A model generated the notes under the pieces. It was not told where the DNA came from. It worked only from the letters and a program-made list of their open reading frames with translations, and did not search any database. Both the position numbers and the translations under genes were made by a program. Of a stretch of 64,000 nucleotides of DNA, positions 51,842-64,000 are shown in pieces. The stretch comes from Syntrophales bacterium. Its GTDB lineage: Bacteria; Desulfobacterota; Syntrophia; Syntrophales; UBA6807. The DNA is taken from assembly GCA_040767195.1 (NCBI GenBank), contig JAXGPA010000003.1:259045-323044 (forward strand), read 5' to 3'. Each line of letters starts with the position of its first letter. Within the stretch, counting starts at the first letter, position 1.

Positions 51842-52942
51842 ATGCCCAACGGACACGGAGCCATTCCAAGATTCGGTTCGCCCTTGCTGATTCTCCTGGT
51901 GACTTTCCTGCTCCTCTGGTGGGCGAGGTCGCAGGCCGCCCTGTTACCACAGGTCCTGGCCGTGGTCGCCGCCGGGATTTTCGGGTGGCGCCTGGCTTTT
52001 CACATGACCATGTGGAACGTGTCGGAATACGACGGCAGGTATTCTTCCGAGGAGCAGGTCGCAAATTCAAAGCGCCGTTACAGGGTGGCCCTCTTTACGC
52101 TCATCCCTCTTTTTGTTCTTCTGACGCTCATTCTCATCACCGCCCGCCCCGCCCATTCGGAAACCGTCACCTTGGAGGAGTTGCGAAACGCCGGTCTCCA
52201 GGGCCTTCCTGCAGAAGGCAGCTCAAAAAGCCGCCTGCCCGATCCCTCGGGAACAGGAATACACGATCCCCGCCTTACCGGAAAAGACATTCGATCCCTC
52301 GATTCAGGCGAGGACTATGCGGTCAGGATGCTCTATGCCATCGGCGACGACGACGTGGAAGAAGCCCAATCGCTTCTTGTCCAGGGCGGCGACCCCAATG
52401 TCAAAGTGCCAGGGTCGGACATGAATATTCTCATGACAGCCCAAAGTGCCGCCATGGTGAAACTTCTGCTCGATCACGGCGCAGACCCGAACCTCCCCGA
52501 CAAAGACGGTGCGACATCCCTGCACTACCTCCTGACGGCAACGTCGGCACCGGAAATCGTCCCGATCCTTTTAAGCTCGGGGGCGAACGTCAACAAGGCG
52601 GCCGAGGGGCGCGGCGGCCGGACGCCCCTCCATGAAGCCGTCCAGTGGTATTTCGAAGGGAGGGACCACGCCGTCGGCGACCGGCTCATCCGGCTTCTCG
52701 TGTCCTCCGGGGCCGACATCAACGCCCCCGGCTACCATGGAAAGACCGTGCTTCACCAGGCCGTGGAGAACGACAAGCCGGACCTGTTGAGACTCGCCCT
52801 TGAACTGGGTGCCGATCCCAGCGTCAGGGACGCCGACGGCGCCACGGCCCTGGACATGGCCAGGAGCCTGAAGCGGGATGCCCTTGTCGAGATGCTGAGT
52901 TCTCCTGTCACGGTCTCATGGAGAGGAAATAGGTGTGGGTAG
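51842..52942 (+). CDS. Membrane-anchored ankyrin-repeat protein
   Basis: Three N-terminal hydrophobic segments; repeats LLLDHGADPN, GATSLH, GRTPLHEAV, GKTVLHQAV, GATALD. Confidence 0.8.
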   Translation: MPNGHGAIPRFGSPLLILLVTFLLLWWARSQAALLPQVLAVVAAGIFGWRLAFHMTMWNVSEYDGRYSSEEQVANSKRRYRVALFTLIPLFVLLTLILITARPAHSETVTLEELRNAGLQGLPAEGSSKSRLPDPSGTGIHDPRLTGKDIRSLDSGEDYAVRMLYAIGDDDVEEAQSLLVQGGDPNVKVPGSDMNILMTAQSAAMVKLLLDHGADPNLPDKDGATSLHYLLTATSAPEIVPILLSSGANVNKAAEGRGGRTPLHEAVQWYFEGRDHAVGDRLIRLLVSSGADINAPGYHGKTVLHQAVENDKPDLLRLALELGADPSVRDADGATALDMARSLKRDALVEMLSSPVTVSWRGNRCG

Positions 52943-53429
52943 GACAGAGCACGTGGGGACGCCGGGACGTGCTGCGGGTGGTGGTGCAGCGGCTGCGGTT
53001 CAGCTGTCGAAGCTTGTGGGAGTCGAAAAAACGGACCTGCCGGGCCGTGATTTCGTGGACAATGGACCAGTGGTCCCACAGGGGACCGCTCAGGCACATG
53101 AGAATGGCTCGCTGACCGTCTGTTTCGAGAAAACGGGTCATCTCCGCCCAGAACTCGTCCAGGGGTGTGTTGGGCCTGTTTTTGAACGGCATGCTTCGGC
53201 AGGGGATCAGATCCCCCACCACCTTTCCAAAAATTCCACCAATGGTAATCAACCCGATCCCCTCGGACAGAACCCGGCTGAGGTCGTGGCTTCGTTCGAG
53301 ATGCTCCAGGATGCGTCGAAACAGGGCTTTCGCCTCGGCATCGCTGATGGATGAGACAATCCGGGCGGCGTTTACGATGCTGTAAATCGCGCACAGGCCG
53401 TCCAGGCTTCCCTGCACGTAGGGTCTCAT
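52908..53429 (-). CDS. Putative papain-like (C39-like) peptidase
   Basis: QGSLDGLCAIYSIVNA (Q...C), DHWSIV (H), FFDS (D); ATG overlaps the upstream stop (ATGA). Confidence 0.5.
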   Translation of the reverse strand: MRPYVQGSLDGLCAIYSIVNAARIVSSISDAEAKALFRRILEHLERSHDLSRVLSEGIGLITIGGIFGKVVGDLIPCRSMPFKNRPNTPLDEFWAEMTRFLETDGQRAILMCLSGPLWDHWSIVHEITARQVRFFDSHKLRQLNRSRCTTTRSTSRRPHVLCPTHTYFLSMRP

Positions 53430-54448
53430 GGCTTCATTCCCCCTGTCGCGCGTTTTGCCACGTGCCGGGCCGCGGCCAGGCGGACGACACGGCTCGCGAA
53501 GGCGCCGTAAGTCATTCCGACCGCTTCCGCGGCATAGGTGAGGCTCGTGTCGGGGCTGATGTCCGGATTGGGATTGACGTCCAGGACGTGGAAAACATTG
53601 TCGCGAAGCCGGAGATCGATGCGAGCGTAGTCGCGGCAGCCCACGAGACGATACGCCGACAGGCACGTCCGCCTCAGAACCGCCAGCTCCCTTTTTGACA
53701 GGTCGGCCGGGACCCGCAGCTGGATCCCCTCGTAGTGACGCGACCCCGGGGTGAACTTGGAATCGAAGGTGCAAAGCCGGTCGCGCACATCGGGAAAGGC
53801 GGAAAAGTCCATTTCAGCGGGAGGAAGCATGTGGACCCGGCCGTTTCCCCACAGGGTGACATGAAATTCCCTGCCGTCGATGAAGTCCTCCACCAGGGCC
53901 GGCTGGGAAAACGTTTCCCGGACATAGGCCACACGGTCCTGCAGGGCCTGTGCGTCGAGAACAACGGCACCGCTGTCGAGCCCCGTGCTGCAGTGCTCGA
54001 AGGCGGGCTTGACGATGGCGGGAAAGCGATGCCAGTCCTCCAGGGATTCCGTTTCCACCACCCGTCCGGCAGGCGTGGCAATGCCGTGAGACGAAAGCAT
54101 GGCCTTGACGGCGCCCTTGTCCCAGGTGAGGGCCAGCACGTTCGGGGGGGACCCGGTGTAGGCGTATCCAAGGCGTTTCAGATGGCCGGCCACCTGAACG
54201 TCGCTGCGGGGGATGCCGGGAATTTCCTCACACCAGTTGAAAACCACGTGGCAGGCCGGGTCGTAAGGGGCCAGCACGGCGCCCAGGTCCGTCCCCGTGA
54301 CGGGCGCCTCGAAAACAGCGTGTCCTTCGGCGGCGAGAGCCGTGACGAACTGACGGACGTCCTCGAGGACCGCGGCGGTGGCCGACGGCGGCCACGACGG
54401 GTCGACATTGTGAAGAACGACGACGGCCGGCTTGACGGACGGCGACAT
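53426..54448 (-). CDS. D-Ala-D-Ala-ligase-like ATP-grasp protein
   Basis: VVFNWCE, YTGS, DKG, PAIVKP, VEDFIDGREF, RDYARIDLR, DVNPNPD; AGGAGG RBS. Confidence 0.8.
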   Translation of the reverse strand: MSPSVKPAVVVLHNVDPSWPPSATAAVLEDVRQFVTALAAEGHAVFEAPVTGTDLGAVLAPYDPACHVVFNWCEEIPGIPRSDVQVAGHLKRLGYAYTGSPPNVLALTWDKGAVKAMLSSHGIATPAGRVVETESLEDWHRFPAIVKPAFEHCSTGLDSGAVVLDAQALQDRVAYVRETFSQPALVEDFIDGREFHVTLWGNGRVHMLPPAEMDFSAFPDVRDRLCTFDSKFTPGSRHYEGIQLRVPADLSKRELAVLRRTCLSAYRLVGCRDYARIDLRLRDNVFHVLDVNPNPDISPDTSLTYAAEAVGMTYGAFASRVVRLAAARHVAKRATGGMKP

Positions 54449-54548
54449 GGGGGCCCTCCTTTTTTTCACATTTACAATCCGAACACTGGAAGATAAAGTC
54501 AACAAAAAAAGGCTCCCTAAGGAAAAAAACGTTTAGGGGAAGATCTAA

Positions 54549-55220
54549 GTGAACATTTCAGAAGCCATAAAAAAGAGGAAAAGCATTCGGGATTTCAAGC
54601 CCGATCCCGTTTCCGAGACCGTTCTTCGGGAAATCCTTGAAACCGCGTGCCGGGCGCCATCGGCGATGAACACGCAGCCGTGGAAGTTCGTCGTTGTCAC
54701 GGGGAAAACCCTGGAGTGTGTCAAAAGAGAAAATATCGAAAAACTGAGAGCGGGTGACAGGTTTAATTCAGAATACTGGACCATCGGGTGGTCCAGGGAC
54801 AGCGTGTATCGACAGCGCCAGGTGGCGCTTGCCAGGCAGATCTTCCAGCTCATGGACATCGAGAGGGAAGACACGAAGAAGCGCTCCGAATGGATGGAAC
54901 GGGGTTTTCGATATTTCGACGCGCCATCGGTAATCCTTATCCTGACAGATAAGGCGCTGAAAGAAAGCACCCCCTTTCTTGACTTAGGGGCCGTTATGCA
55001 GAATATCTGCCTCGCGGCGATGGATTACGGTCTGGGGACCTGTATCGGCGACCAGGGCGTCATGTATCCCGAGGTGTTGAGAAAACACTGCGTTATTCCG
55101 GAATCGGACATGATCGTCATTTCCATATCGATTGGTCACCCGAATCACGGGTTCCCGGCAAACAGGCTGGAAAGCCCCCGCGAACCCCTGGATACATTAA
55201 CGAAATGGTGCACTGATTGA
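54549..55220 (+). CDS. Nitroreductase family protein
   Basis: RKSIRDF, APSAMNTQPW, FDAP, DLG..QNICLAA..GLGTC. Confidence 0.9.
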   Translation: MNISEAIKKRKSIRDFKPDPVSETVLREILETACRAPSAMNTQPWKFVVVTGKTLECVKRENIEKLRAGDRFNSEYWTIGWSRDSVYRQRQVALARQIFQLMDIEREDTKKRSEWMERGFRYFDAPSVILILTDKALKESTPFLDLGAVMQNICLAAMDYGLGTCIGDQGVMYPEVLRKHCVIPESDMIVISISIGHPNHGFPANRLESPREPLDTLTKWCTD

Positions 55221-55390
55221 GACCGTGATTTGACCTTTTTTTTCAACTCGGCACCCATTTCCGGTCTCTCCTGAAGGTCCCTGTCCTACTACAATATGGC
55301 TCCTCCTTTTTCACCAGCGCGGCCCCGAAAGGGGAAGGATGCTTTCCAAAACACCCGTAACCGAAAACTCGATTTCGGATTTTAAGCTGT

Positions 55391-55770
55391 TCAGTCCCTG
55401 ACCGCGCCGTTTCCGTCGTCTCTTCGCGGCTTCCTCGCGTAACTTTTCTGGTTCCTCCGGCGGCAAAACGACCCCGTGGAAATCCAGGCCTTAATGATGA
55501 AGCGGATCGTATCGTAACGGCTCGCCTGGAAAATTATCATGAGGAATCCCTTTTCCCTTTCCTCGCGAATCTCGTGATCGGAAACATCGTCCGGCGTTTA
55601 AGAGAACGACGGGGTTCAGCGTCGATGGCCGCCCCTGCCTCGGCGTCCCTATCCCCGTAAACCAGGCGTTGCCCTGCGCCCAGGGTGTCGGCCCGATCGC
55701 CCGGGACGGCCCTGACGGCGCTTCCGGACAGCCCGAAATCGGTTCAAGGGGAAGGACACCGACCTTACAG
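55391..55770 (-). pseudogene. Degraded 3' remnant of a WYL/WCX-domain regulator
   Basis: Segments in shifting frames: GNAWFTG / AIDAEPRRSLKRRTMFP / DHEIREEREKGFLMIIFQASRYDTIRFIIKAW / VVLPPEEPEKLREE resemble the C-terminal half of WYL proteins; no start, several frameshifts. Confidence 0.45.
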
Positions 55771-55773
55771 CAG

Positions 55774-55869
55774 GATTTCAGGGGTCAAAAAGGGCTGTTT
55801 AAGGCCAAAAAAGAGCGAAAAAAAGACTCTTTATTCTCATATATCATATACTTGTCTTGGTCCGACCCC
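55774..55869 (+). repeat. Left-type end L1 (ends in CTTGGTCCGACCCC)
   Basis: 96 bp, about 80% identical by hand alignment to 59038-59133. Confidence 0.88.
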
Positions 55870-55896
55870 AATGCCCGGAACCGACGATCATTCCTA

Positions 55897-55924
55897 TTGA
55901 CTTCATCCTGTTTTCGCCTATTAT
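55897..55924 (+). promoter_or_regulatory. Putative promoter of the S8 peptidase gene
   Basis: TTGACT-16 nt-TATTAT just inside the L1 core. Confidence 0.4.
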
Positions 55925-56113
55925 TTCTGTTTAAGGATCGGTTTTTTCGACAGCCCGATGAGGGGGCCACCTCGATTCTTTCCCGTCAGGGAAACCGGGT
56001 GGCGGTAAGTGTAAACTGTAGTTGTTCTAAAAGGTTATACAAAAACGGTTTTTTGTGGGGCGGTTGTTCGTTGGATGAAACGTTCCCTGTGGTAATCCGG
56101 GAGGAAAAGAACG

Positions 56114-58312
56114 ATGGGTGCGACAAAGAGAATTGTGGTCATTGCTTCAGTGGGCCTTTTGCTTTTTGGGTTCGCAAGCATGGGCCTTGGACAGGTGTTT
56201 TTTGTCAAAGACACGGTAAAAATAACCGAAGGGCCGAAATGGGCGCCCGGTGAAATCCTGGTGAAGTTCCTCCCCGGCACGAGCGGCGCCGTCATCGACG
56301 CCGTGAACGGGCGGCACGGGACGGCGGTGATCTCCACCAGCCGATTCGCCGGTTTTAAGAGACTGCGGATTCCACCGGGAAAAACCGTCCCCGAGATGGT
56401 GGAGATCTACAAGCGGAACCCCAACGTGGAATACGCCGAGCCGAACTTCATCGCTACCACGATGGTGGAATTCAACGATCCAGGTTATTACTTACAGTGG
56501 CACTTGGACAACCCCGGTACTGGGGGCATCCACATGGAATCCGCCTGGGATATCGCCGGCGGCGGTGACGAGAGCGTAATCGTCGCCGTCATCGACACGG
56601 GGGTGGCTTATGAGTATTACCGGGAGTTCGTGGACAACCCCGGGCGGGGCCAGGATTACTGGATAACGTACCAGGAGGCCCCCGATCTGGCCGAAACGCA
56701 TTTCGTGGCCGGTTATGATTTTGTCAACGACGATACCCACCCCAACGACGACGAGGGGCACGGCACCCACGTGACGGGCACGATCGCCCAGAGCACGGAT
56801 AATGGTATCGGCGTCGCCGGAATAGCCTTTAACACCGCCATCATGCCGATCAAGGTGCTCGACAGAAACGGTTCCGGCACTTACGGGAACATCGCCGACG
56901 GCATATACTTCGCCGCCAACCATGGAGCCCGCGTCATCAACATGAGCCTCGGGGGGTCCAGCGGATCGATCACCCTGGAGGCCGCCCTTGCCTATGCCTA
57001 TAACAAGGATGTGACCATCGTGTGCGCGTCGGGAAACGACGGGTCGGCCGAAACCGTCAGCTACCCGGCGGCCTATGACGCCTACTGCATCGCCGTGGGC
57101 GCCACCCGGTACGATGAGGCGGTTGCCTACTATTCTAACGGGGGCCCTTCCCTCGACCTGACAGCACCGGGGGGCGACATTAACGTCGACCAGAACGGGG
57201 ACGGGTTTGGCGACGGCGTCCTCCAGCAGACCTTCGGCGCCAACCCGACGGACTTCGGCTATTATTTCTATCAGGGTACCTCCATGGCGACCCCCCACGT
57301 GAGCGGGGTGGCGGCTCTCCTGATAGCCCAGGGCGTGGCAACGCCCGATGCCGTCAGGGAAGCACTGCAAGCCACTGCGGAAGATCACGGAGCTACTGGC
57401 TTGGACCCGCAGTACGGCTGGGGTATCATCAATGCCTATAAGGCCCTGACTTACTATGCCGCGCCGAATGAACGGCCGGTGGCGGATGCGGGCGGGCCTT
57501 ATTCAGGAACAGAGGATCAGGACGTCACATTTAATGGATCAGGTTCATACGATCCGGACGATGACCCGCTGACCTACCGGTGGGACTTCGGCGACGGTTC
57601 GACCGGTTCGGGGGAAAAATCGACCCATGCCTACAGTACCGGCGGAACCTACACGGTGACCCTCATCGTAAACGACGGCAAGGCGGATTCCGACCCTGAC
57701 ACGACGACCGCCACCATAGCCCACGTAAACGATGCACCGGTAGCGGACGCGGGGCCCGATCAATCTGCCGTGGTGGGCGAGACGGTCACCTTTGATGGGA
57801 CCTCCTCCTTTGACGAAGATGGTACTATCACCTCCTATGACTGGGACTTCGGCGATGAAACAACCGGGTCAGGTGTAACGGCCACCCACACTTATTCAAC
57901 GGCAGGCATCTACATTGTCACGTTGACTGTAACGGATGAAGGCGACTTAACGGGAAGCGACACGGCAAAAGTCACCGTCACCGAGGCCCAGGCCCTCACC
58001 ATGCACGTGGCCAACATCGACATGTCCCTGAAGAAAGCGGGGCCGAACGTGGAGGCCATCGCCACGGTGACCGTCGTGGATGGTGATGGGGCTCCTGTCG
58101 GGGGCGCCACGGTCTCCGGCCGATGGAGCGGGCTGACAAATGACAGCGATTCCGGGATAACGGGTGATAACGGAACCGTCTCGCTTCATTCCAACAAGGT
58201 GAAAAACGCCAGCGGAACCTTCACCTTCACCGTGGACAACATCACGAAGGACGGCTGGACGTATGATCCCGATGCCAATGAAGAAACATCCGGCTCGATA
58301 ACGGTACGTTAA
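56114..58312 (+). CDS. Secreted S8 (subtilisin-like) serine peptidase with two PKD domains
   Basis: Signal peptide, propeptide (VEYAEPN), triad VIDTG / HGTHVTG / GTSMATPHV, two PKD repeats (WDFGDG/WDFGDE), C-terminal Ig-like domain. Confidence 0.93.
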   Translation: MGATKRIVVIASVGLLLFGFASMGLGQVFFVKDTVKITEGPKWAPGEILVKFLPGTSGAVIDAVNGRHGTAVISTSRFAGFKRLRIPPGKTVPEMVEIYKRNPNVEYAEPNFIATTMVEFNDPGYYLQWHLDNPGTGGIHMESAWDIAGGGDESVIVAVIDTGVAYEYYREFVDNPGRGQDYWITYQEAPDLAETHFVAGYDFVNDDTHPNDDEGHGTHVTGTIAQSTDNGIGVAGIAFNTAIMPIKVLDRNGSGTYGNIADGIYFAANHGARVINMSLGGSSGSITLEAALAYAYNKDVTIVCASGNDGSAETVSYPAAYDAYCIAVGATRYDEAVAYYSNGGPSLDLTAPGGDINVDQNGDGFGDGVLQQTFGANPTDFGYYFYQGTSMATPHVSGVAALLIAQGVATPDAVREALQATAEDHGATGLDPQYGWGIINAYKALTYYAAPNERPVADAGGPYSGTEDQDVTFNGSGSYDPDDDPLTYRWDFGDGSTGSGEKSTHAYSTGGTYTVTLIVNDGKADSDPDTTTATIAHVNDAPVADAGPDQSAVVGETVTFDGTSSFDEDGTITSYDWDFGDETTGSGVTATHTYSTAGIYIVTLTVTDEGDLTGSDTAKVTVTEAQALTMHVANIDMSLKKAGPNVEAIATVTVVDGDGAPVGGATVSGRWSGLTNDSDSGITGDNGTVSLHSNKVKNASGTFTFTVDNITKDGWTYDPDANEETSGSITVR

Positions 58313-58345
58313 CAGGCGGAAAAACAAAACCGGGTTACTCACAAG

Positions 58346-58385
58346 AAAACCCTCCCGGCTTTCATAAACGCCGGGAGGGTTTTTT
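58346..58385 (+). terminator. Rho-independent terminator (possibly bidirectional)
   Basis: AAAACCCTCCCGGC...GCCGGGAGGGTTTTTT. Confidence 0.85.
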
Positions 58386-58407
58386 ACGCTTCAGATAACA
58401 CGGATTC

Positions 58408-58461
58408 GGGGTCGGACCAAGATAAGACCCTTATATAATTGGAGATATCGTTAAATTAAAG
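58408..58461 (+). repeat. Right-type end R1 (starts GGGGTCGGACCAAG)
   Basis: 14-bp core is the reverse complement of the L-end core; following ~40 bp align ungapped with 63945-63998. Confidence 0.85.
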
Positions 58462-58753
58462 CTGTTTTCAGGCCTTAGAAGCATCATTTCGGGGTTAAAA
58501 TGGACGCTGTAACGCTTGGAGGGCTTTTGAAGAACATGAAGGTCCCTTTCCTACAGGGGCCGGGTATTGTTTCGGTCCGGCCCCATACCGACCCCTATTT
58601 TTTATCCATACGAGACAAGCGCTTTTTACATGTCTGACAGCCGGAATCGTCGTTAGCAAACAATCATCCCTCACAACGGCATACCGATACCCTTGATATC
58701 CCGGTGTCACGTTGAGAGGAGGAACAAAATCCGGAACACGCAGGCACCCCGAT

Positions 58754-59030
58754 TCATTTTATGCCGGCCATCCTCAAGGCCCTCTCCCTCAGATAATTCA
58801 GGTTGTTGTTCTGGCAGATCATCAGTCTCTGGCATCCGCCGGGCCGGCGCCGTGGGATGACTCGGTAAGAACGTTCGATCCCTACCCGACGCGATATTCG
58901 ATGAGACGAATAATGCGGACCCTGTTTTCCGTCGATATGCCGTCCCCGCCTTTGAAGTATTTGTCCACGTAGACCGTGATTTCCGAATTTTCCAAGTCCT
59001 GCCTGCTGGGAGCGGTACAAACCACACCGC
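58754..59030 (-). pseudogene. 3' remnant of a 4-hydroxybutyryl-CoA dehydratase / HpaB-family gene
   Basis: APSRQDLENSEITVYVDKYFKGGDGISTENRVRIIRLIEYRVG*GSNVLTESSHGAGPADA (frameshift) QRLMICQNNNLNYLRERALRMAGIK*; one nonsense codon, one frameshift, 5' part absent. Confidence 0.75.
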
Positions 59031-59037
59031 ACAACAT

Positions 59038-59133
59038 GATTTTATAGGTTAAAAAAGGCTGTTTAAGGTCAAAAAAGATGCGAAAAAAGGATTTATCTTC
59101 TGCTATATTAAATACTTGACTTGGTCCGACCCC
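59038..59133 (+). repeat. Left-type end L2 (ends in CTTGGTCCGACCCC)
   Basis: 96-bp direct repeat of 55774-55869. Confidence 0.88.
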
Positions 59134-59294
59134 GACCTCACTTATAGCGGTCATCACCCGTCACTTTTCGATTACGGTTTTTTGGCAAAACAAATCGTCG
59201 GGGATTGCCGGAAACGCGATTCTGTGAGATGATGATTTTTGAAACTTAAGAGGTATTTCCCGGAGGTTAGCGAGCGGAGGCAAGGAAGAGAAAG

Positions 59295-60578
59295 GTGACT
59301 GACATGAAGGAAGAATCGGGACTCAAGATTGCCGTCATCGGTGCGGGCGTCGCCGGCATTGTGAGCGCCTGGCTGCTTCAGCGGAAACACCAGGTATCTC
59401 TCTATGAAAAAAATGACTACGTGGGAGGCCATACCCGCACCATCGTCATAGATGACGGCCCTGACGCGGGAACGCCCGTTGACACCGGCTTCATCGTTCT
59501 CAATGACCGGACCTATCCCATGTTCAACGCGTTTCTGTCCCGCCTCGGGGTTACCGTCGTCCCGACGGACATGTGTTTCAGCTATTACGATCGTCAAACG
59601 GGCTATTGTTACGCGAGCAGTGATCTGAACACCCTTTTCGCCCAGCGTTCCAATCTTTTGAAACTCTCGCACTGGCGGCTTCTTTACGACATTCTCCGCT
59701 TCAACAGAAAAACCCGCGAGTGCCTGCACGGTGGAACACTGAACGGTCTCACCCTGAGTGACTATCTCAAAAGGGAAGCCTTCGGCGACAACCTGGTCAG
59801 CAGCTATCTGATTCCCATGGCGGCGGCGATCTGGTCGACACCGGACCTCAAAATGATGGAATTCCCCGCCGAGAGTTTCTTTCACTTCTTTGAGAACCAC
59901 GGCCTTCTGACCGTGACCGACCAGCCCCGGTGGCACTATGTGAAAGGCGGAAGCCACACGTACGTCAAGGCATTCCTCGGTGAATTCAACGGACCGGTAA
60001 TGTTGAAAACGCCGGTGAAGCGGATAACCCGAAGCGGTGGTCACATCACGGTGACGGCGGCCGATGACAGGGAAGCGGTTTATGATTGCGCCGTCATCGC
60101 CACCCATGCCGACCAGGTACTCCGATTCCTGTCGGATCCGTCGCCCGAGGAAACCCGTCTCCTGTCCCCGTGGCGATACATGAAAAATCGCGTGATCCTG
60201 CACACCGATATTTCCTTCCTGCCGCCGAACCGCCGGGCCTGCGCTTCCTGGAACTACATCCGGGAACCGGGCATCGCGTCGGCATCTCCCATCACCGTTA
60301 CCTATCACATGAACCGGCTTCAAAAACTCAAGACGAAAAGGGATTACTGCGTAACGCTCAACCCGGTGCAACCGGTCGACCCGTCGTCGGTGATCCGTGA
60401 AATGGAATATGATCACCCCATGTACACCTTCGATGCCATGGCGACACAGAAAGAACTCTCACCGTTGAATGGTACAAAGAACACCTATTATTGCGGCAGT
60501 TATTTCGGCTACGGGTTTCATGAAGACGCCGTCCGGTCCGCCGTCGCCGTAGCACGAAAGTTCGGAATCGATCTATGA
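59295..60578 (+). CDS. FAD-dependent oxidoreductase (COG2907 / UfaD-like)
   Basis: GAGVAG, GGHTRT, VDTGFIV, PMAAAIWS, FFENHGLL, ATHADQ, ASWNY, YDHP, GYGFHEDA. Confidence 0.88.
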   Translation: MTDMKEESGLKIAVIGAGVAGIVSAWLLQRKHQVSLYEKNDYVGGHTRTIVIDDGPDAGTPVDTGFIVLNDRTYPMFNAFLSRLGVTVVPTDMCFSYYDRQTGYCYASSDLNTLFAQRSNLLKLSHWRLLYDILRFNRKTRECLHGGTLNGLTLSDYLKREAFGDNLVSSYLIPMAAAIWSTPDLKMMEFPAESFFHFFENHGLLTVTDQPRWHYVKGGSHTYVKAFLGEFNGPVMLKTPVKRITRSGGHITVTAADDREAVYDCAVIATHADQVLRFLSDPSPEETRLLSPWRYMKNRVILHTDISFLPPNRRACASWNYIREPGIASASPITVTYHMNRLQKLKTKRDYCVTLNPVQPVDPSSVIREMEYDHPMYTFDAMATQKELSPLNGTKNTYYCGSYFGYGFHEDAVRSAVAVARKFGIDL

Positions 60579-62542
60579 ATTCGAGGATCTTTATCGGACA
60601 GGTAAAACACGAGAGGCTGAAACCGGTCCGGCACCAGCTGGCGTATCCGCTCTATGTTTACTGTTTTGACCTGGACGAGCTGACCGAACTGGACCGGACG
60701 CTGCCGCTCTTCGGTTACAACCGCCCGCGACCGGCATCCCTGTATGACCGGGACTATCTCGACGACAGCGATGGGACCGTCAGGGAAAAACTGACTCGTT
60801 TTCTCGAGGCTGAAGGATATGCCGATGCGGTGACAACCGTCATGCTCGTAACATCCGCCCGATACTTCAACTATATATTCAACCCGGTGAGTTTCTACTA
60901 CTGCTTCTCCCGGCGGGGTGATCTGGTCTGCGTCGTTGCCGAGGTGAACAATACCTTCGGCGAGCGGCACGTCTACATACCCCGGCGGACAGATAAGGAA
61001 GGGAACGGTTTCCCCGCCCGTTTTTCGGCGCCGAAGCACTTTCACGTGTCGCCCTTTAACGACATGACCGGAAGCTACGAGTTCGTTTTCTCCGATATCA
61101 GAAAAGAACTGTTCATTCGCATCAACCTCTACCGAGACGACGAGCTCGCGTTCTACGCGGAACTCTGGGGAACGCCCGTTCCCCTGACGGCGTCCCGGCA
61201 CGCGAAAGTGCTTCTTTCGCACCCGTTGATTCCCCACCTGACAATACCAAGGATTTACTGGGAAGCGGCCAAGCTCTTTTTCGTCCGGAAACTTTCGTAC
61301 CACGAAAAACCGGTTCCTCTCAGCATGATGACGATTCGGCGGAACCCCCCTACCCTTTTTCAGAAGCGGTGCATGAACTTCATTGTCACCCTTTTAAACC
61401 GGATAAGGCACGGCGCGATCCGGATGACCCTGCCGGACGGCACGGCACGGACGTTCGGTCCGGAATCGACGAAAGACCCGGGCGTTATGGACATCCATGA
61501 TTACGGTTTCTTCTCCCGCGTCATCCTGGGAGGAGACATCGGTCTGGGCGAGGCCTATGTGGACGGGCTGTGGGACAGCCCGGATCCGGTAACGGTGATC
61601 TCCGCTTTCATCGAAAACCGAAACAGCGTATCCGACGGCGGCTTTATCACCACGGTATACACCCGTCTCCGAGACCGGATCCTTCATCTTGCCCGGGCGA
61701 ACACGCCCGCCGGCGCGCGGAGAAACATCCGGAGGCATTACGATCTCAGCAACGACTTCTTCGAGACCTTTCTCGACAGGTCAATGACATATTCCTGCGG
61801 GATTTTTAATTCCCCTGGCGACACCCTGGAAGACGCTCAAAAGAACAAGCATCACGCCGTCATCGAAAAGGCCCGGATAACGGCCGACGACCATGTCCTC
61901 GAGATCGGCTGCGGCTGGGGCGGTTTCGCTATTGAGGCCGTGAAAGAGACGGGCTGCAGGCTCACCGGCATTACCGTTTCCCAGGCCCAGTACGATTATG
62001 CCAGAAACCGGGTTTTCAAAGAGGGGCTGGACGATCGCATCACCCTTCATCTCAGGGATTATCGAGAGATGGGCGGCAAGTTCGACAAGATCGTGTCGAT
62101 CGAAATGCTCGAGGCGGTAGGGCACAAGCAGCTTGGAACGTTTTTTCACAAGCTGGACGACCTGTTACGGGAAAACGGGCGGATCGTTCTCCAGGCAATC
62201 TCCATCCCCGATCAGCGATATGACGGCTACCGGAAGGATGCGGACTGGATTCGCAAGCACATTTTCCCCGGCGGACACCTTCCGTCGCTCGGCGCGTTGA
62301 TCAAGGCCATGAAGAACCATTCTTCCCTCACCGTTGACGACGTGGAGAACATCGGCCTCCACTACGCCCGGACGCTCCGGGAGTGGCGCCGCCGGTTCGA
62401 AGAAAATATCGACGCTGTCAGCGCCATGGGGTTTGACCGGTCCTTCCGCCGGAAATGGCTGTACTACCTGGCAAGCTGTGAAGCGACCTTCGCCACGCGG
62501 TACCTGGGAGACCTGCAGCTCGTTCTCACCAGGCCTGGATAG
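60575..62542 (+). CDS. DUF1365 (UfaO-like) fused to a Cfa/UfaM-like SAM-dependent fatty-acid methyltransferase
   Basis: N-half: HERLKPVRH, FNPVSFYYC, AEVNNTFGERH, FHVSPF, IYWEAAKL; C-half: GLGEAY, HYDLSNDFF, MTYSC, LEIGCGWG, SIEMLEAVG, IFPGG; one continuous frame. Confidence 0.88.
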   Translation: MNSRIFIGQVKHERLKPVRHQLAYPLYVYCFDLDELTELDRTLPLFGYNRPRPASLYDRDYLDDSDGTVREKLTRFLEAEGYADAVTTVMLVTSARYFNYIFNPVSFYYCFSRRGDLVCVVAEVNNTFGERHVYIPRRTDKEGNGFPARFSAPKHFHVSPFNDMTGSYEFVFSDIRKELFIRINLYRDDELAFYAELWGTPVPLTASRHAKVLLSHPLIPHLTIPRIYWEAAKLFFVRKLSYHEKPVPLSMMTIRRNPPTLFQKRCMNFIVTLLNRIRHGAIRMTLPDGTARTFGPESTKDPGVMDIHDYGFFSRVILGGDIGLGEAYVDGLWDSPDPVTVISAFIENRNSVSDGGFITTVYTRLRDRILHLARANTPAGARRNIRRHYDLSNDFFETFLDRSMTYSCGIFNSPGDTLEDAQKNKHHAVIEKARITADDHVLEIGCGWGGFAIEAVKETGCRLTGITVSQAQYDYARNRVFKEGLDDRITLHLRDYREMGGKFDKIVSIEMLEAVGHKQLGTFFHKLDDLLRENGRIVLQAISIPDQRYDGYRKDADWIRKHIFPGGHLPSLGALIKAMKNHSSLTVDDVENIGLHYARTLREWRRRFEENIDAVSAMGFDRSFRRKWLYYLASCEATFATRYLGDLQLVLTRPG

Positions 62543-62696
62543 GGGACAGGGCATGACGCAAGCGAAACAACCCGCGCCATTCTCATGGGCAGCGGCCACG
62601 ATCAACGTCGTGCCCGACGGGATGTGAGCCGGGTTTCGACCTCCCTTCTTCAGGCTTGTCGATGACACGGGTTTTTTAAAAAAGAGGCAAAGATAA

Positions 62697-63305
62697 ATGG
62701 AAATGAAAGGGAAACGCAACATGGGACCGAACAAGAGACGAACGTTTCTCGGCGTCATTGTTCTCGTTATCCTGATGGGGTGCGGGGGAAAAGGATTCAA
62801 GGAGGGAACTGAAATGACATACAACAGGATGCTCGCCGATACGGATCCGAAGACAATGGAAACGGTCCAGCCCGGCTCCGAAAAGGAACGGGAGGCGATC
62901 GATCGATTTAAATCATTCTATCAAGTCTTTTCGGCGGAAATCATCAAAGACAGAATCAGGACTGTCTATGCCGGGCCAGCCTATTTTCGTGACGGGTACC
63001 GGGAGGTCACGGGACTTGATAACATCGAGGCGTATTTCCTCAAGAGCGCCGAAACGGTCCACGAGTGTACCTTCGACATTCAGGATGTCGCCGTCCACGA
63101 GGGCAATTACTACTTCCGGTGGGTCATGAACCTGACGACAAAACGCTGGAAGGACGAACCGATAACGGCGGTGGGCATGTCCCATGTCCGGTTCGACCAG
63201 GAGGGAAAGGTTATTTTTCACCAGGATTACTGGGATACGAGTCTCGTGTACGAGAAGATTCCCATCGTGGGTTCGGTCATTCGATGGGTCAGGGAGCAGT
63301 TTTGA
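62697..63305 (+). CDS. SnoaL/NTF2-like lipoprotein
   Basis: Lipobox-like LMGC; Y....YFRD, GLDNIEAYF, GMSHVRF, HQDYWD, YEKIPIVG. Confidence 0.78.
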   Translation: MEMKGKRNMGPNKRRTFLGVIVLVILMGCGGKGFKEGTEMTYNRMLADTDPKTMETVQPGSEKEREAIDRFKSFYQVFSAEIIKDRIRTVYAGPAYFRDGYREVTGLDNIEAYFLKSAETVHECTFDIQDVAVHEGNYYFRWVMNLTTKRWKDEPITAVGMSHVRFDQEGKVIFHQDYWDTSLVYEKIPIVGSVIRWVREQF

Positions 63306-63437
63306 TCGTTCCCTCCTGTGGGAAAGCACCATTCTCATTCTGACCGCCGGCGGTCCCCTCGACGGGCGCAACGCCCCGTCCCGTTCTCATTGTTTTCGGT
63401 GCTTCAATTGCAGGTTACCGAATAAGGAGGTGTCTTC

Positions 63438-63941
63438 ATGCGTTTCTGTTTTGTTTTACTGTCCATCGCTGGAACCTCGGCCCTTGTCTTCGGCATGGTC
63501 GCCCCCGATTTCACAGCGAATTCATATGACGGCCGGCAGATAACCCTGTCGGCACTGCGGCAGCAGGGCCCCGTCATGCTTGTCTTTCTCCGTGGATTCG
63601 GCTGACCTTACGCCCGACAGCATCTGGGACAGATGAAAGAGGATTTCGAGGAATTCAGATCGAGAAACACCACGATCGTCGTCGTCGCGCCGCACAGCCC
63701 GGAAAAAGTGGACGCCTACTGGAAGAAGGAAAGCCTGCCCATGATCGGCATCCCCGACGAGGACGGAAAGCTGGCCGAGCTCTATGGCCAGGAGTGGAAA
63801 ATACTGAAGCTTGGCCGGATGCCCGCGCTCTTCGTGATCGACCGTAACGGTTCCCTCGCATTCGCCCACTACGGGACCAGCATGTCGGACATACCCGAAA
63901 ACACCGACGTCTTAAAGGTCCTCGACGGCCTCATGGCATAG
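63438..63941 (+). CDS. Peroxiredoxin-like (AhpC/TSA) selenoprotein with in-frame UGA at 63603-63605
   Basis: AAGGAGG RBS, ATG 63438; APDFTA..ITLS..GPVMLVFLRGFG-UGA-PYARQH continues in frame into the 63633-63941 ORF (MPALFVID); hairpin CATCTG-GGA-CAGATG 15 nt after the UGA. Confidence 0.82.
63621..63635 (+). promoter_or_regulatory. Candidate bacterial SECIS stem-loop
   Basis: CATCTG/CAGATG stem with G-containing apical loop just downstream of the in-frame UGA. Confidence 0.6.
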
Positions 63942-63944
63942 CAC

Positions 63945-64000
63945 GGGGTCGGACCAAGTTAATGTGTTGATACAATTGCAAATATCTCTAAAAAAGAGGC
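63945..64000 (+). repeat. Right-type end R2 (starts GGGGTCGGACCAAG; runs off window)
   Basis: Core begins 3 nt after the selenoprotein stop; aligns with R1. Confidence 0.85.

Follow-up and report, generated by a model that had tools for sequence, protein, structure and literature searches.

The 64,000-nt stretch of a Syntrophales bacterium genome analysed here (the window; positions 259045-323044 of contig C7 in a genome of 13 contigs and 2.39 Mb, G000) contains four exact copies of a 14-bp core, at 55856-55869 (-), 58408-58421 (+), 59120-59133 (-) and 63945-63958 (+). These four sites, L1, R1, L2 and R2, are almost certainly dispersed ends of the TIRtron type, a class of elements built around a Y1/HUH transposase. 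Comparison of natural alleles indicates that blocks of genes beside them are probably gained or lost at the core edges by the action of the cognate enzyme. A preliminary description of the window had placed the four cores and their alternating orientation correctly and had proposed that an HUH/Y1 transposase acts on them in trans, which agrees with the intact Y1 gene that we found between two cores elsewhere on the same contig; its picture of two cassettes bounded by asymmetric L/R pairs is not supported.

A single family of ends and its Y1 transposase

Across G000 the core occurs 26 times (23 exact copies and three with one mismatch), and a reversed control pattern has no match in this genome. 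Nearly every copy is followed by a related arm of ~90 bp, and the resulting ends of ~105 bp form a single family. L1 and L2 are ~81% identical over 104 columns, close to the ~80% estimated earlier by hand. The two arm classes distinguished at that time are real subfamilies (A for the L ends and B for the R ends, with five and four members in G000), but both belong to the one ~105-bp family and share a second conserved box. The consensus of 102 ends consists of the core, ~45 AT-rich bases and this symmetric box, CTTA-N9-TTTT-N7-AAAA-N8/9-TAAG, in which the tracts are ~11 bases apart and CTTA begins near base 67. The L and R arms have this box in common, and 16 non-coding 5' ends retain it too. 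With an arm-only profile, 23 of 24 full arms were found to carry a core with at most one mismatch, and the cores are far better conserved than the arms.

When seven ends were folded, six proved no more structured than shuffles (z -0.2 to +0.9) and one reached z -3.3. Since six of the seven lack an unusual hairpin, recognition presumably takes place on double-stranded DNA and not on a repetitive extragenic palindromic (REP) hairpin; no attC-like hairpin was seen among the folds either, in line with the earlier remark that the sites do not resemble attC. The core, GGGGTCGG, is one base off the motif GGGGWSAS, which fits one of the 26 G000 copies. No GTAG foot occurs in the end consensus, and a REPtron, in which a REP-associated tyrosine transposase (RAYT) is combined with REPs, was ruled out by the lack of GTAG-footed hairpin repeats.

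A Y1_Tnp search of G000 returned three matches. An intact 265-aa Y1/HUH transposase gene is located at C7:187280-188074, 127 kb from the ends in the window, so that the lack of a transposase reported before is true of the window and not of the contig. The element that contains this gene (C7:187251-188198, 948 bp) runs from a + core to a - core with GGGG outward, and its 3' arm overlaps the last transposase codons. Together with five elements in other genomes, there are six complete transposase-bearing units of 928-950 bp, and all six are GGGG-outward. This reverses the polarity assigned earlier, by which GGGG faced the cargo: because GGGG faces outward in the transposase-bearing element, the cargo lies outside the ends. 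The protein matches PF01797 above the cut-off, and the HUH histidines (H62 and H64) and Y123 are invariant in seven of seven homologues, which also share the tyrosine motif Y-I-D-L-N-M, that is, Y---NM and not the class 2 signature Y---NP. Its NF047646 score is 67.4 bits, below the cut-off of 80. The closest fold match of the transposase model is E. coli TnpA-REP (4ER8), a sequence search of the PDB gave nothing better than E 0.5, and a conserved C-terminal extension of ~120 aa has no Pfam match at 1e-5. Membership in IS200/IS605 was ruled out, as the ends are inverted, belong to one family and have no hairpin in common, and as the NF033573 score is 21.7 bits against a cut-off of 55.

Exact cores were found in seven of 31 related genomes, and all four genomes with the transposase belong to these seven. 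Records with the same end are, among the matches listed, mostly metagenome-assembled genomes of Desulfobacterota / Deltaproteobacteria, and no match to the element was found in 72,556 plasmids. The preliminary description had also considered a tyrosine recombinase. On such a reading the sites would be Xer/pdif- or integron-like and the Y1 gene itself a passenger. The intact element does adjoin a tRNA-Leu and an XerD-type gene; however, in unrelated genomes this Y1 family is bordered at a fixed distance by these same ends, the R arm overlaps the coding 3' end, the cores co-occur with the Y1 gene and an attC-like hairpin is lacking, which largely refutes this option and makes it extremely improbable.

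R1 and R2 are derivatives resembling miniature inverted-repeat transposable elements (MITEs). R1, described before as a single end, opens a 177-bp unit with a decayed second core at 58571-58584 (three mismatches) that had been overlooked; the unit is 80% identical over 177 bp to G000:C10:80222-80398, in which both cores are present. The R1 arm holds relic transposase C-terminal codons, and tblastn with the transposase matches R1 at E 0.005. R2, which begins 3 nt past the stop codon at 63939-63941 as stated before, continues as R1-like sequence in contigs from metagenome runs X13 and X17, and this sequence ends in a decayed far core in runs X1 and X17. The length of the 168-177-bp units would be roughly that expected if a single box served two cores. 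The 26 cores of G000 include dimers of 177-309 bp and clusters. In all 19 two-ended units the target-site duplication amounts to 0-2 nt, i.e. there is none, as had been noted, and a classical DDE-transposase MITE was ruled out on this ground. Near-identical ends in G000 have only 0-1 outer bases in common (five of five pairs), which sets the element edge at the outer G; in other genomes such pairs share 1-12 outer bases and one pair at least 40. Only high-identity clusters of the arm identity matrix were used, as alignments failed for low-identity pairs. The alternative offered earlier, that R1 to L2 is one element, has the right polarity, but the segment is composed of a MITE, a captured gene fragment and a separate end. 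The fragment, of hpaB type (58885-59031; PF03241, E 7e-12), is cut at the L2 arm, and no second copy of the spacer DNA exists in G000.

Alleles differ at the outer edge of L1

Metagenome contigs from four of the 24 listed runs (X1, X6, X13 and X17; four studies) were compared with window positions 52001-64000, X17 bins without cover not being counted as absence. The full form was found in X1 and X6, and in X13 too, where the S8 subtilase gene is ~94% identical and the match begins in the L1 arm and ends in that of R1. A near-identical pair of metagenome contigs (L155 and L156) possesses L1, S8, R1 and L2 at 95-97% identity to the window, and this layout is therefore no assembly artefact. L1 has no differences there over 99 positions, and all three cores are unchanged although S8 diverges by 8.8%. 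A metagenome scan with the A-end pattern returned three contigs, all of them filled alleles.

The outer (CCCC) edge of L1 is a recurrent breakpoint, with three alternative alleles, from three studies, departing from the window sequence at 55869-55871. An X13 contig joins 55871 to 59177, so that L1 is followed by the lipid-block leader. An X1 contig joins 55869 to 58598 with six other letters and lacks the S8 gene and the whole R1 MITE; the missing span starts at the core edge of L1 and stops no more than 3 bases from the partial core at 58585-58595. The X17 contig matches 55369-55869 and then enters DNA absent from G000 and from the fetched loci. Two further alleles have no ends: in X1 (55242 joined to 59162, with eight letters between that resemble 55244-55251) and in X13 (55404 joined to 59200), the lipid-block leader comes after the nitroreductase gene, and L1, S8, R1 and L2 are all missing. 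Since these two alleles lack L1, R1 and L2, the lipid block does not need L2. The variable units at the locus lie between cores in direct orientation, the S8 gene being the passenger of unit 55870-58595, and resident DNA starts again at ~59161, past the outer flank of L2, where the X1 no-end allele rejoins at 59162. In other genomes, direct-repeat pairs enclose gene units as well, namely toxin-antitoxin modules and metabolic genes.

With respect to the cassettes proposed earlier, gene content does change at the end edges, but asymmetric L/R pairs do not behave as units: one allele keeps L1 but has neither S8 nor its R MITE, and in two runs the lipid block is present with none of L1, R1 and L2. 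A scheme in which L and R ends with GGGG facing the cargo move whole as L-cargo-R, or swap cargo at an L|R junction, for example via a circle, thus appears improbable. It survives as a minority reading because all three GGGG-in pairs under 7 kb in G000 combine subfamily A with subfamily B, with unrelated cargo. The order A end, gene(s), B MITE is present at three places. The LysM-uvrD site on C10 carries, in G000, an 815-aa gene between an A end and a B MITE; three relatives (G002-G004) lack the entire unit and have an empty site, whereas in G001 a different gene with no ends beside it is located there. The X13 copy of S8, bounded by the two arms, and a 13.8-kb block between GGGG-in cores (G000:C7:132320-146092), which is contiguous in G001 without exact cores and whose synteny breaks off 13 bases from one edge and 19 from the other, also favour such movement. 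On the other hand, the L and R ends belong to a single family, an A end lacking a partner occurs at least once (C1:88742), and among the 52 adjacent core pairs closer than 7 kb GGGG-in is the rarest arrangement (six, vs 22 GGGG-out and 24 direct). The empty back-to-back L|R junction was found in none of 339 genomes, few of which have cores, in a search of low power.

Synteny with G001 was inspected at 13 end-bearing loci outside the window: 11 have a break or gene-content change, one has none and one is uninformative, with one listing crowded by another repeat. Synteny is broken to the same degree in two 20-kb controls without cores, and therefore such breaks were not used as proof.

Comparison of window 54549-60754 with L155 and L156 reveals mosaic divergence: the nitroreductase gene differs by 4.5%, the left passenger (55252-55764, the most diverged stretch of the locus) by 11.9% and S8 by 8.8%, and the ends, spacer and oxidase by 0-1.4%. 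This pattern suggests recombination inside the locus.

Junction repeats and the proposed mechanism

Outside GGGG, a stretch made up of the last 3-12 bases of the flank and 0-16 bases from the start of the end is repeated upstream. Ends for this test came from a genome-contig scan (at least 129 stretches), with cores having fewer than 40 flank bases dropped; among the matches listed there were 193 distinct cores, 103 scored as ends and 90 without a scored arm. Counting related genomes, which are not independent samples, we found junction repeats of at least 7 nt at 30 and of at least 10 nt at 18 of the 103 ends; the corresponding rates were 1.8% and 0.3% for 3090 random flanks, and 1.4% of shuffles reached 7 nt. 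A control edge inside the arm gave one in 102. Core fragments lie within 30 bases of 27 of the 103 ends (shuffle mean 8, maximum 17), and in 16 of the 30 repeat-bearing ends the last flank bases are present three or more times. By eye, the L2 flank looks like a decayed junction repeat, and the X1 no-end allele rejoins where this flank ends. No consensus dinucleotide was found at the left edge of the repeats, and hence no nick site is claimed. A pyrimidine bias at position -1 (87 of 103 ends) was rejected as a signal, being also present at 71 of the 90 cores without a scored arm. According to the available part of Corneloup et al. (PMC8266576), an HUH nick leaves a 3'-OH able to prime synthesis or attack a phosphotyrosine, and for this reason abortive nick-extend-rejoin is the simplest reading of the repeats.

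We propose that the autonomous form (928-950 bp; core-arm, Y1/HUH gene, arm-core, GGGG outward) provides a transposase that would work in trans and bind the arm as double-stranded DNA. The enzyme may nick at or near the core outer edge via a 5'-phosphotyrosine, and the edge would be joined to other DNA, mostly in one-ended events or between a pair of directly oriented cores. In this way, blocks like S8 plus MITE, or gene fragment plus L2, would be added beside an existing core or deleted, without target duplication, and the repeats of flank plus truncated core might be scars of abortive nick-extend-rejoin cycles. The so-called cassettes would then be the segments remaining between such edges. 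As stated above, enzyme-driven gain or loss at core edges is probable; the exact chemistry (nick, 5'-phosphotyrosine, edge joining) is put forward tentatively. A wider version, which we consider conceivable but doubtful, makes TIRtron ends a distributed HUH-driven gene-acquisition system, with the core outer edge as a reusable entry point at which the trans-acting Y1 enzyme adds units of passenger plus end and swaps passengers between strains, the repeats recording each firing of an end; such a system would be comparable to an integron that has neither an integrase nor a fixed locus.

A number of observations count against enzyme-driven turnover. Each joint is represented by one contig, with a short side of 30-69 letters at 90% likeness, and in the case of the 30-letter joint a paralogous end might account for the left side. 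The allele differences fit gain as well as loss, the left breakpoints of the no-end alleles (~55251 and 55404) are away from cores, and 59177-59200 lies 43 or more bases beyond L2. S8 homologues were found in three of 400 other genomes, and no ends of this kind lie within ~1.5 kb of them. One solo end is situated between conserved neighbours with no gene change, and neither a circle nor a junction intermediate was seen. As for the junction repeats, an outward-shifted edge control (not independent of scars) gave 21 of 206, cores without a scored arm show 10%, and L1, R1 and L2 score 0, 3 and 0 in the exact repeat test.

A passive origin is the other explanation to be weighed, in which MITEs and solo ends insert independently in intergenic hot spots, host recombination or slippage between direct repeats makes the alleles, and the enzyme moves its own ends only. 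Direct repeats suited to this are at hand (L1 and L2 at 81% identity, and the L1 core with the MITE far core), and the solo end without gene change, the G001 synteny as broken in core-free DNA and the fact that no passenger with ends was found at two loci all accord with it. What makes it rather unlikely in our view is that the X1 joint has six extra letters and is no clean crossover, that the X17 DNA right at the L1 edge is absent from G000 and the fetched loci, that G000 has three GGGG-in pairs under 7 kb, every one of them the same A plus B combination, and that the cores are far better kept than the arms.

Relation to known systems and features of the locus

IS91/ISCR elements capture neighbouring DNA by one-ended rolling-circle transposition with a Y2-type HUH enzyme and dissimilar ori and ter ends. 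The present system shares with them an HUH enzyme, the absence of target duplication, one exact end with a variable boundary and the carriage of neighbour genes; it differs in its Y1 enzyme and in having inverted ends of the same repeat family, and is not a member. Integron cassettes are bounded by attC, which acts as a bottom-strand hairpin. Gene units between short sites in arrays, with one site as a possible reusable entry, recall integrons and pdif modules, whereas an HUH transposase, units containing gene fragments and their own promoters, and the lack of an attC hairpin set the present locus apart. By analogy, the proposed one-ended joining would resemble IS91/ISCR capture and, loosely, an integron.

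In the available part of its description (Di Nocera et al. 2013, PMC3733652), a TIRtron has a RAYT-like Y1 gene between long terminal inverted repeats (TIRs) that are not GTAG REPs; TIRs are also dispersed singly, as dimers and in groups, and GGGGWSAS is stated for some TIRs only. A Y1 gene between long TIRs, a GGGG-led core and dispersed repeats are found here too. The core GGGGTCGG, one base off GGGGWSAS, is a difference, and the 105-bp end with a phased box, passenger turnover at the edge and junction repeats do not appear in that part of the description. As far as the accessible portions of these sources go, TIRYT is subclass 2.1, with proteins in ~15% of strains (Quentin et al. 2018, 10.1101/279083), and TnpA-Y1 subclass 2.1 corresponds to RAYT group 1 (Bertels et al. 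2017, 10.1101/119735). Judged by the same portions, the transposase resembles subclass 2.1 in its long RAYT-like protein, C-terminal extension and absence of nearby REP hairpins, and differs in having Y---NM instead of Y---NP; its extension gave no Pfam match at 1e-5 to the helix-turn-helix-like domains named for subclass 2.1 (Bac_DnaA_C, HTH_23 and HTH_28). By sequence, ends and enzyme fit the TIRtron/TIRYT class despite the core one base off and the NM motif.

C-terminal TnpA-REP fragments face prochlorosin genes, for which enzyme-led diversification has been proposed, with no inverted repeats found and causality noted as unresolved (Laurenceau et al., 10.1101/2020.03.09.984088). Likewise, a transposase C-terminal fragment faces a passenger where R1 faces S8; in contrast, ends and breakpoints are defined at the present locus.

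The repeat class is already named (TIR/TIRtron) yet hardly studied, and no assay of a TIRYT enzyme is reported in the parts of the TIRYT literature examined. In a search that covered neither subscription papers nor the Di Nocera and Quentin supplements, we found no publication on this core, on passenger capture by TIRtrons or on a junction-repeat footprint. Gene turnover at the end edge hints at an undescribed way of swapping genes. The locus offers a defined test system in which the enzyme is intact and the 105-bp end mapped, and which includes a minimal two-core unit of ~170 bp, a base-exact hot edge, several natural alleles and a countable junction scar. Should the enzyme move passengers, this would be a gene-gain route in anaerobic bacteria apart from integrons, pdif modules and DDE transposons, based on a Y1 enzyme reading non-hairpin ends; if it does not, a well-described MITE family is at hand.

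The features of the locus are summarized below. The cargo genes, regarded before as intact, include an AhpC/TSA-like gene in which a single TGA stands in frame as codon 56, at the presumed redox site (GFGUP); this codon probably encodes selenocysteine in a putative selenoprotein. A gene fragment lies in the spacer. No Rfam match was found in window 54000-64000.

Table 1. Features at the right end of the window (coordinates of the 64,000-nt stretch)
Feature	Position	Strand	Basis or remark
DNA on the arm side of L1	55252-55764		missing from one no-end allele, partly kept in another
L1, ~105-bp TIRtron-type end, subfamily A	55765-55869	-	core 55856-55869; hidden Markov model match
S8 subtilase, secreted-type, two PKD domains	56114-58312	+	PF00082, PF22148, PF18911
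Terminator-like hairpin 3' of S8	58346-58385	+	read by eye from the sequence
R1, 177-bp MITE-like unit, subfamily B	58408-58584	+	intact core 58408-58421, decayed far core 58571-58584
Partial extra core just beyond the far end of the R1 MITE	58585-58595	-	right boundary of the S8 unit
Spacer, orphan DNA	58598-59030	-	hpaB / 4-hydroxybutyryl-CoA-dehydratase-type 3' gene fragment
L2, TIRtron-type end, subfamily A	59031-59133	-	core 59120-59133; direct repeat of L1
L2 outer flank resembling a decayed junction repeat	59134-59160		hexamer twice and two core fragments, by eye
FAD-dependent oxidoreductase, lipid block gene 1	59295-60578	+	PF01593
DUF1365 fused to cyclopropane-fatty-acid-synthase-type methyltransferase	60575-62542	+	PF07103, PF02353
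SnoaL-like protein	62697-63305	+	PF12680
AhpC/TSA-like redox protein, 167 aa if TGA is read through	63438-63941	+	SelL-related, below cut-off
R2, start of second MITE-like unit of subfamily B, cut by the contig end	63945-64000	+	continued in metagenome contigs

Homologues of the lipid genes (51-59% identity) are present in three relatives, in another gene order and without ends, which counts against the cassettes. S8 DNA was not found in 300 genomes of the class (two candidates scored per genome). The 815-aa C10 passenger (L015:5723-8167) is lipoprotein-like with internal repeats and has no Pfam or NCBIfam match; its Atlas lead, PI-PLC-like, scored 0.76, below the useful level.

Same-orientation arrays of ends with a spacing of 0.8-2.5 kb were observed in other genomes (L091, L063, L057, L067 and L096), some with toxin-antitoxin pairs or a C-terminal transposase fragment between the ends. 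In a nested cluster (G000:C7:146093-152256), unrelated genes separate two MITE copies of ~300 bp, of which one has a decayed end, and another end related to them, and the stop codon of one open reading frame lies in a core. A cupin reading frame (L011:5810-6298) reaches the right core of the intact transposase element, with a possible GTG start directly at the CCCC edge. Besides the cognate gene, G000 has another intact RAYT-like Y1 gene (336 aa, with a DnaA-like tail; C9:54365-55375) and a broken one (C1:462197-462508) preceded by a different GGGG-led motif, so that several TIRYT-like families are carried by this genome. Finally, a different repeat of ~120-170 bp was identified on contig C1 of G000 (L004:7145-7320), with ~40 or more copies in the relative G001.

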